This document shows positions 32,240 to 32,736 of a DNA stretch of 64,000 nt, in pieces; the first letter of the stretch is position 1; the number at the start of each line of letters is the position of its first letter. The DNA comes from a virus, in the IMG/VR virus record IMGVR_UViG_3300042558_000825, positions 45,531 to 109,530 of that record; one strand, given 5' to 3'. The notes below the pieces were generated by a model. That model was not told the origin of the DNA and made no database searches. It was given only the letters and a program-made list of their open reading frames with translations. The position numbers and the translations under genes were made by a program.

Positions 32240-32600
32240 TTCGTTGTCTGAGTTTGTCAGACCTCCTTGAAGATGCGTGTAAGAACGCTGATGGATCTGG
32301 AGTAAGCATAGTTAGTGATAACTATGGAATACCGAGAGGGCAATCGACAAAGCGAACCCTCAACAAGCTCATCCCTACTTTATCTTTGCGGGGTGAGAAG
32401 TGCGTTGCTGAAGAATCAATTGAAAGATCATTGATAGCTTCACTACAGTCCCATAACTTTACAGAGCAACCGGTAGCGTTTAGTAGCAACAAATAGCTAA
32501 TTAGACGGGGAAAAGATAACAAAGGATGACGGGCATGGCAAATACCCTTAACCATTGGTAGTGCTGAATAGCACTACCATGGCTTTCTAAGCGGCAATTG
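32240..32600 (+). ncRNA. Candidate large structured non-coding RNA (family not recognised)
   Basis: Intergenic, about 44% GC by hand count versus about 15% in the next 40 nt. At least 8 helices, a GNRA tetraloop, G-U pairs favouring the + strand, and an 8 bp loop-to-distal complementarity. Confidence 0.7.
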
Positions 32601-32648
32601 AATTAATTAAATATAAACTCTTTATAAACAATAGATTACCGTTAAACG

Positions 32649-32691
32649 TAAGAACGAACGAAGTGAGTTCTTAGATGAACGAAGTTCATCT
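32649..32691 (+). other. Tandem C(GAA)G triloop hairpins of ssDNA type; origin/priming-signal candidate
   Basis: TAAGAAC-GA-AC-GAA-GT-GA-GTTCTTA and AGATGAAC-GAA-GTTCATCT, preceded by an AT-rich tract at 32596-32640. Confidence 0.5.
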
Positions 32692-32736
32692 TTACAATAG
32701 AAACAAGAATATATAATCCTAGCTTTGAATAAATGA

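Follow-up and report, generated by a model that had tools for sequence, protein, structure and literature searches.

The locus was found on a 109.5-kb IMG/VR contig of an uncultured T4-like jumbo phage (32% complete by CheckV), and all positions refer to the window, that is, the whole 64-kb stretch of this contig that was analysed. Annotation revealed a plus-strand operon for gp55-, gp47- and gp46-like proteins, followed by a resolvase gene, a block free of genes and a homing-endonuclease gene on the complementary strand (Table 1). The Pfam and phrog matches agree with a first-pass annotation made from the letters alone, which had placed the site beside gp46, gp47 and resolvase genes. BLASTN comparison of the locus with cultured phages produced no match, and the resolvase matches in cultured phages were all below 60% identity (best listed, 42.7%); cultured phages therefore provide no experimental system. 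In a large group of giant lake and ocean phages, all of them uncultured, the two-hairpin element (HP1 and HP2) ranks among the best-conserved non-coding features.

Table 1. Features of the locus in window coordinates
Feature	Position	Strand	Basis or remark
Divergent intergenic junction	27276-27392	.	Upstream of the gp55-47-46 operon; context
gp55-like late sigma factor gene	27393-28304	+	phrog_12791, E 8e-71
gp47-like Mre11-type phosphoesterase gene	28354-29367	+	Pfam Metallophos
gp46-like Rad50/SMC ATPase gene	29567-31639	+	Pfam SMC_N, AAA_23, Rad50 zinc hook
PDDEXK/RusA-like Holliday-junction resolvase gene	31674-32228	+	Directly 5' of the RNA; Pfam PDDEXK_15, E 7e-26; phrog_244
Gene-free block	32229-32736		Holds RNA core, spacer, HP1 and HP2
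Large pseudoknotted non-coding RNA core, ~355 nt	32240-32595	+	Covariation; without Rfam family
A/U-rich spacer	32596-32648	+	Unstructured; sequence and length vary
HP1: outer stem, tandem G.A/A.G step, 2 bp, C(GAA)G triloop	32649-32673	+	Covariation
HP2: 8-bp stem, C(GAA)G triloop, abuts HP1, then TTTA	32673-32691	+	Covariation
Conserved ATAAATGA box and TTACGGG (right arm of third stem)	32729-32747	.	Conservation in relatives
Free-standing homing-endonuclease gene	32737-33234	-	phrog_314; N-terminus IYLYKK...GLKYLGKT

Searches of Rfam at gathering and permissive thresholds revealed no relevant family for the RNA core, and no tRNA or tmRNA was found. RNAalifold analysis of 55 relatives predicted 78 pairs in the core, with compensatory changes in 57 of them. 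Since G.U pairs were plentiful among these and A.C combinations nearly nil, the core could be assigned to the plus strand. Two pseudoknots were recovered by mutual information, one joining the loop UAUCUU with AAGAUA and the other UCCC with GGGG. The fold is deeply conserved and common to marine and freshwater phages; spurious ORFs called inside the RNA form a protein cluster in the databases. Mutual information also revealed two non-complementary positions (GGGC/GGUC and AAGC/AAUC) which switch jointly from G to U.

The tract directly 3' of the core had an AT content of 84.4% at 32596-32640, as the first-pass annotation had described (~85%), and the spacer as a whole reached 81% (A25 T18 C6 G4). 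Just 0.13% of the 55-nt segments in the window had an AT content of 82% or more. Among the 55 relatives the spacer measured 35-79 nt and contained 67-91% AT (mean 77%), while its information content was 0.2-0.9 bits per column, indicating poor conservation. The 34 nt that open the spacer did not fold more stably than shuffled controls, and a small hairpin considered there was therefore rejected.

HP1 reads TAAGAAC-GA-AC-GAA-GT-GA-GTTCTTA and HP2 reads AGATGAAC-GAA-GTTCATCT; these are the two abutting C(GAA)G hairpins, the first with GA/GA, that had been noticed on first reading. Covariation was evaluated in 48 relatives with resolvase identities of 69-99%. Paired cells made up 94.8%, compared to 27-37% with slid partners, both-side changes were observed in 15 of the 16 hairpin pairs, and none of 500 shuffles matched the observed values. 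The GA/GA of HP1 was retained in 46 of the 48 relatives, and in some lineages HP1 carries two GA modules (GAAUGA opposite GAAUGA) or an extra outer helix. Over 129 unique tails (spacer, HP1 and HP2 are together called the tail), the HP2 cells consisted of 1011 Watson-Crick, 8 U.G and 0 A.C combinations. On the opposite strand the G.A steps and the G...A loops would become pyrimidine mismatches. The pair covariation, the excess of U.G over A.C in HP2 and the retention of GA/GA thus demonstrate that the hairpin structure is selected on the plus strand only. The outer arms of HP2, AGATG/CATCT, were almost invariant, and G.U pairs were scarcer in the tail (~1%) than in the core (~5%). Nearest-neighbour energies of the hairpins as DNA and as RNA did not discriminate between the two. 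Reading HP1 as a K-turn was rejected, since an extra A, if any, lies 3' and not 5' of the GA and the 3-nt bulge is absent. In one relative (L170:7530-7680) the HP2 loop was inverted to UUC on the same stem.

The exact HP2 19-mer was present in more than 116 IMG/VR contigs, and the RNA was located upstream on the same strand in every one with sufficient upstream DNA. The core was recognised by nhmmer in 109 HP2 contigs, where its end is located 64-127 nt (mostly 75-100) upstream of HP2; in contigs L140 and L142 a diverged RNA homologue upstream of HP2 was missed by nhmmer and recognised by eye. A search of metagenome contigs by core motif, which yielded contigs of at least 1 kb throughout, revealed exactly one tail in each of 93 complete RNA loci (93/93), with the hairpins 35-79 nt downstream, after seven further matches (four chance matches and three truncations at contig ends) had been set aside. 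Thus, the check on co-occurrence and spacing of RNA, AT tract and hairpins in relatives, which the first-pass annotation had proposed, yielded a strict linkage. With a covariance model, the whole 109.5-kb contig yielded a single tail, as did each of five complete genomes (349-525 kb) even when E-values up to 1 were allowed. No covariation could be detected between tail and core (best mutual information 0.37 vs 0.5-1.5 for real pairs), and the tail is therefore a module independent of the core, whether it acts as RNA or as DNA. Pairings tested by hand between tail and core (ACCGU with GACGG, and the 3' arm of HP2 with GGAUGA) were rejected because they showed no compensation. Approximately 20 of 114 contigs start or stop inside or just beside the RNA or tail, perhaps because assemblies break where co-occurring strains share a stretch.

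The lineage of L140 and L142 carries a GC-rich and strongly diverged RNA homologue (L140:10850-11290), in which the helix CCUCC/GGAG is replaced by CCACC/GGUG. This lineage has no resolvase gene, and its RNA lies behind a SegE-like GIY-YIG gene. HP2 is identical there, while HP1 has a GCAA loop, and immediately behind the tail come a late promoter (CTAAATACC) and the co-directional gene to which it belongs; this order is the layout of the end of an RNA gene. The homing-endonuclease gene was limited to the window and its four closest relatives (L005, L007, L008 and L024), and in these five genomes it is located after the tail and never between core and tail. BLAST coverage of the other relatives ends at approximately 32704. 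In relatives without the endonuclease gene, a third stem, ACCCG(TAA)/(TTA)CGGGT, encloses the ATAAATGA box and is followed on the minus strand by a U-rich run. The box, in the form (T/G)ATAAATGA(A/C), was present in 109 of 155 unique relatives (e.g., L040:5035-5066) and resembles a T4 late promoter. In the window, the endonuclease gene has its stop codon within the ATAAATGA/TTACGGG element, and the stem has lost its left arm. The third stem, which lies outside the tail, probably terminates the convergent gp26 operon.

The loops of the 129 unique tails were mainly cGAAg (78), cGAUAg (19) and cGUAg (10) at the apex of HP1 and cGAAg (74), cGUAg (11) and cGUAAg (8) in HP2. They follow the pattern c-G(N)NA-g, which is that of the C-G-closed GNA/GNNA loops of DNA mini-hairpins. 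GCGNAGC and GCGNNAGC hairpins are far more stable as DNA than as RNA, GCGAAAGC having a Tm of 76.5 °C as DNA and 39 °C as RNA, and such mini-hairpins have been found at the G4, St-1 and alpha3 origins and at RSF1010 ssiA (PMC13037366). The first-pass statement that cGAAg loops are especially stable in single-stranded DNA is in accordance with this rule, which the tail loops fit. The exact GCGAAGC occurs in many relatives, and the copies in the window read ACGAAGT and AACGAAGTT. Tail tetraloops starting with G had a pyrimidine as the third base in 30 of 40 cases (GAUA, GUUA, GUCA, GCUA, GACA and GGUA), whereas the P3 loop of the core was GNRA in 20 of 20, both counts being taken regardless of shared ancestry. 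GNRA and gCUUGc tail loops were also seen in some lineages, and seven HP2 variants had U.G closing pairs; both features speak for action as RNA.

On the sequence evidence, the spacer, HP1 and HP2 are best read as the 3' tail of the RNA transcript, where they would define or protect its end or bind a protein; we rate the chance of this as about even. Plus-strand transcription would pass the core and the unstructured A/U-rich spacer and then HP1 and HP2, which would fold in the RNA as a coaxially stacked rod. The rod could define or protect the 3' end, either by weak termination at HP2 followed by UCUUUA or by blocking 3'-to-5' exonucleases; alternatively, it could be the docking site of a sequence-specific protein. 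No terminator-like site was found between the last core helix and HP1, and RNA started from the core must therefore contain the tail. The element is conserved, specific to the plus strand, single-copy and always linked to the RNA, its spacer is held within a limited range of lengths, and the convergent operon has a terminator-like stem with a U-run of its own, all of which argue for the 3' tail. Against it stand the missing U-tract after HP2, the lower frequency of G.U in the tail than in the core, the missing covariation between tail and core, and loops which match DNA mini-hairpins, unlike the GNRA loops of the core and the terminator loops of this phage group. Nevertheless, the 3' tail is a simpler explanation than a replication origin and fits the data at least as well. 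Such a tail would give the transcript a 3' boundary and a likely handle for protein binding. Knowledge of the mode of action of the tail, as RNA or as DNA, would narrow down the function of this new large RNA, and the different loop grammars of core and tail offer a clue that can be tested directly.

The first-pass annotation had interpreted the structured RNA, the AT tract and the hairpins as an RNA-primed replication origin. In a wider form, the 3' part of the RNA would stay on its template at the AT-rich spacer as an R-loop, and the displaced plus strand would fold into SSB-resistant mini-hairpins which mark an entry site for primosome or primase, at an origin or in another event involving single-stranded DNA. 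We consider this unlikely. Sequence by itself cannot separate the two modes of action, because the strand of the RNA is also the strand that an R-loop would displace. The conserved anatomy, the strict coupling to the RNA gene and the DNA-type loops of the proposed origin stood, whereas no computed feature was specific for the initiation of replication, and no adjoining promoter and no G-rich anchor could be found. Action on single-stranded DNA would agree with the c-G(N)NA-g loops, the Y-GA-R context of the tandem G.A steps and the exact GCGAAGC of many relatives (PMC13037366), and with hairpins that differ from the real terminators of the phage group. The exceptional spacer is consistent with it as well, being A+T-rich with no conservation of its own sequence, like the unwinding elements of T4 (PMC3016281).

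The T4 origins oriF and oriG comprise approximately 100 bp and lack hairpins; each joins a middle-mode promoter to an A+T-rich unwinding element whose sequence is non-specific (PMC3016281). At the present locus the AT tract begins approximately 360 nt into a highly structured RNA, which departs from the T4 arrangement of promoter and unwinding element within ~100 bp. No sigma-70-like site was found in 32560-32700 by a scan that takes in no MotA-type promoters, and no antisense promoter was seen within the tail. The four G of the spacer provide no G-rich hybrid anchor of the ColE1 type, and as A/U-rich RNA the spacer would be a weak hybrid former. The U.G closing pairs among the HP2 variants also speak against a DNA hairpin. 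Moreover, the module lies at a convergent and not a divergent junction, as it does in most relatives. According to the twin-domain model, the positive supercoiling between convergent units opposes opening of the duplex. A single copy per genome of 350-525 kb is a further difficulty, as T4 uses at least five origins.

Cumulative GC skew, the measurement suggested for the proposed origin, gave a mixed result. The skew was nearly bipartite in four 350-kb relatives (G001, G004, G005 and G003), and in these complete genomes the module was 4.6, 6.8, 9.6 and 39.5 kb, respectively, from the global minimum. In the window contig the minimum was observed at ~27.5-28.5 kb (window coordinates), approximately 4-5 kb from the module and beside the divergent junction that precedes the gp55-like gene, a position directly seen in the window only. 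The minimum lay within ~4-9.6 kb in three complete genomes and the window contig, which would favour the proposal, but it was located at a divergent junction and was remote in G003. T4 origins tend to sit where the transcribed strand switches (PMC3016281). The proximity of the skew minimum may have come with the inherited gp55-47-46 operon or gene order, in which case the three near cases are perhaps not independent. If anything, judged by skew alone, the divergent junction outranks the hairpins as an origin candidate. By analogy with ColE1 RNA II, hairpins acting as DNA could constitute a single programmed replisome entry in T4-like jumbo phages of 350-525 kb, the RNA being a deeply conserved structured primer or positioning device; we regard this as doubtful. 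If a primer-linked origin of this kind were true, T4-like jumbo phages would have their first conserved origin that is defined by sequence.

It is improbable that the hairpins are plain terminators of the two convergent units, HP2 acting for plus-strand and HP1 for minus-strand transcripts. The site does lie between convergent genes in most relatives, and a minus-strand T-run follows HP1 in many of them (e.g., TTTTTT in L040), but the window itself has none. The 8 nt that follow HP2 contained six or more T in 0 of 126 tails (mode 2-3), compared to 6-7 T over an equal distance behind the stems of real terminators in the window, which have GAAA or UUCG loops. A collection of 35 terminator-like hairpins from 2.7 Mb of relatives had UUCG, GAAA and other loops, and cGAAg in none. 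Since no U-tract follows, HP1 and HP2 are not canonical terminators. In addition, the conserved G.A steps, read on the minus strand, would turn into U.C mismatches, the operon on that strand owns a separate stem and U-run, the tail is retained where the next gene is co-directional, and its sequence conservation far exceeds that of real terminators. The first-pass annotation had been prepared to give up its proposal if the hairpins were not conserved or were mere terminators of convergent transcripts; they proved to be conserved, without a canonical U-tract and always accompanied by the RNA. The idea that the inverted repeats are half-sites for a dimeric protein bound to double-stranded DNA is very improbable, for although the nearly invariant outer arms of HP2 would suit an operator and symmetric changes in half-sites would mimic covariation, the presence of U.G and absence of A.C in HP2 reveal a strand asymmetry, and the HP1 G.A steps and the G...A loops have no symmetry in duplex DNA.

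Comparison with known systems revealed partial likeness to each of four. The T4 origins oriF(uvsY) and oriG(34) also belong to a T4-like phage and have a non-conserved A+T-rich tract downstream of a transcribed element (PMC3016281), and the module is near a switch of transcribed strand in some genomes; however, they have neither structured RNA nor hairpins within their ~100 bp, whereas here the tract is ~360 nt from the start of the RNA and at a convergent junction. The mini-hairpins of G4, St-1, alpha3 and RSF1010 ssiA share the C-G-closed GNA/GNNA loops, a sheared G.A pair, strand specificity and a place beside an AT-rich tract (PMC13037366), but their substrate is DNA that is single-stranded from the outset or that an initiator has opened, and the present genome is double-stranded, with no initiator or iterons seen. 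ColE1 RNA II is likewise long and folded, and its 3' part would need to hybridise near the origin. The hairpins here, on the strand that would be displaced, resemble primosome assembly sites. The locus differs from ColE1 by its deeply conserved pseudoknotted fold and lacks a G-run/C-run anchor, and nothing indicates an antisense regulator. Non-coding RNA genes of bacteria and phages have 3' hairpin tails and terminators, a class to which the preferred 3' tail would belong; these are similarly located directly 3' on the same strand, after an unstructured A/U-rich spacer and in one copy per RNA gene. In contrast to these, the present tail has no U-tract and consists of two abutting hairpins with a tandem G.A rod and deep sequence conservation, and where the terminators of this phage group use UUCG or GNRA loops, the tail uses c-GNA-g.
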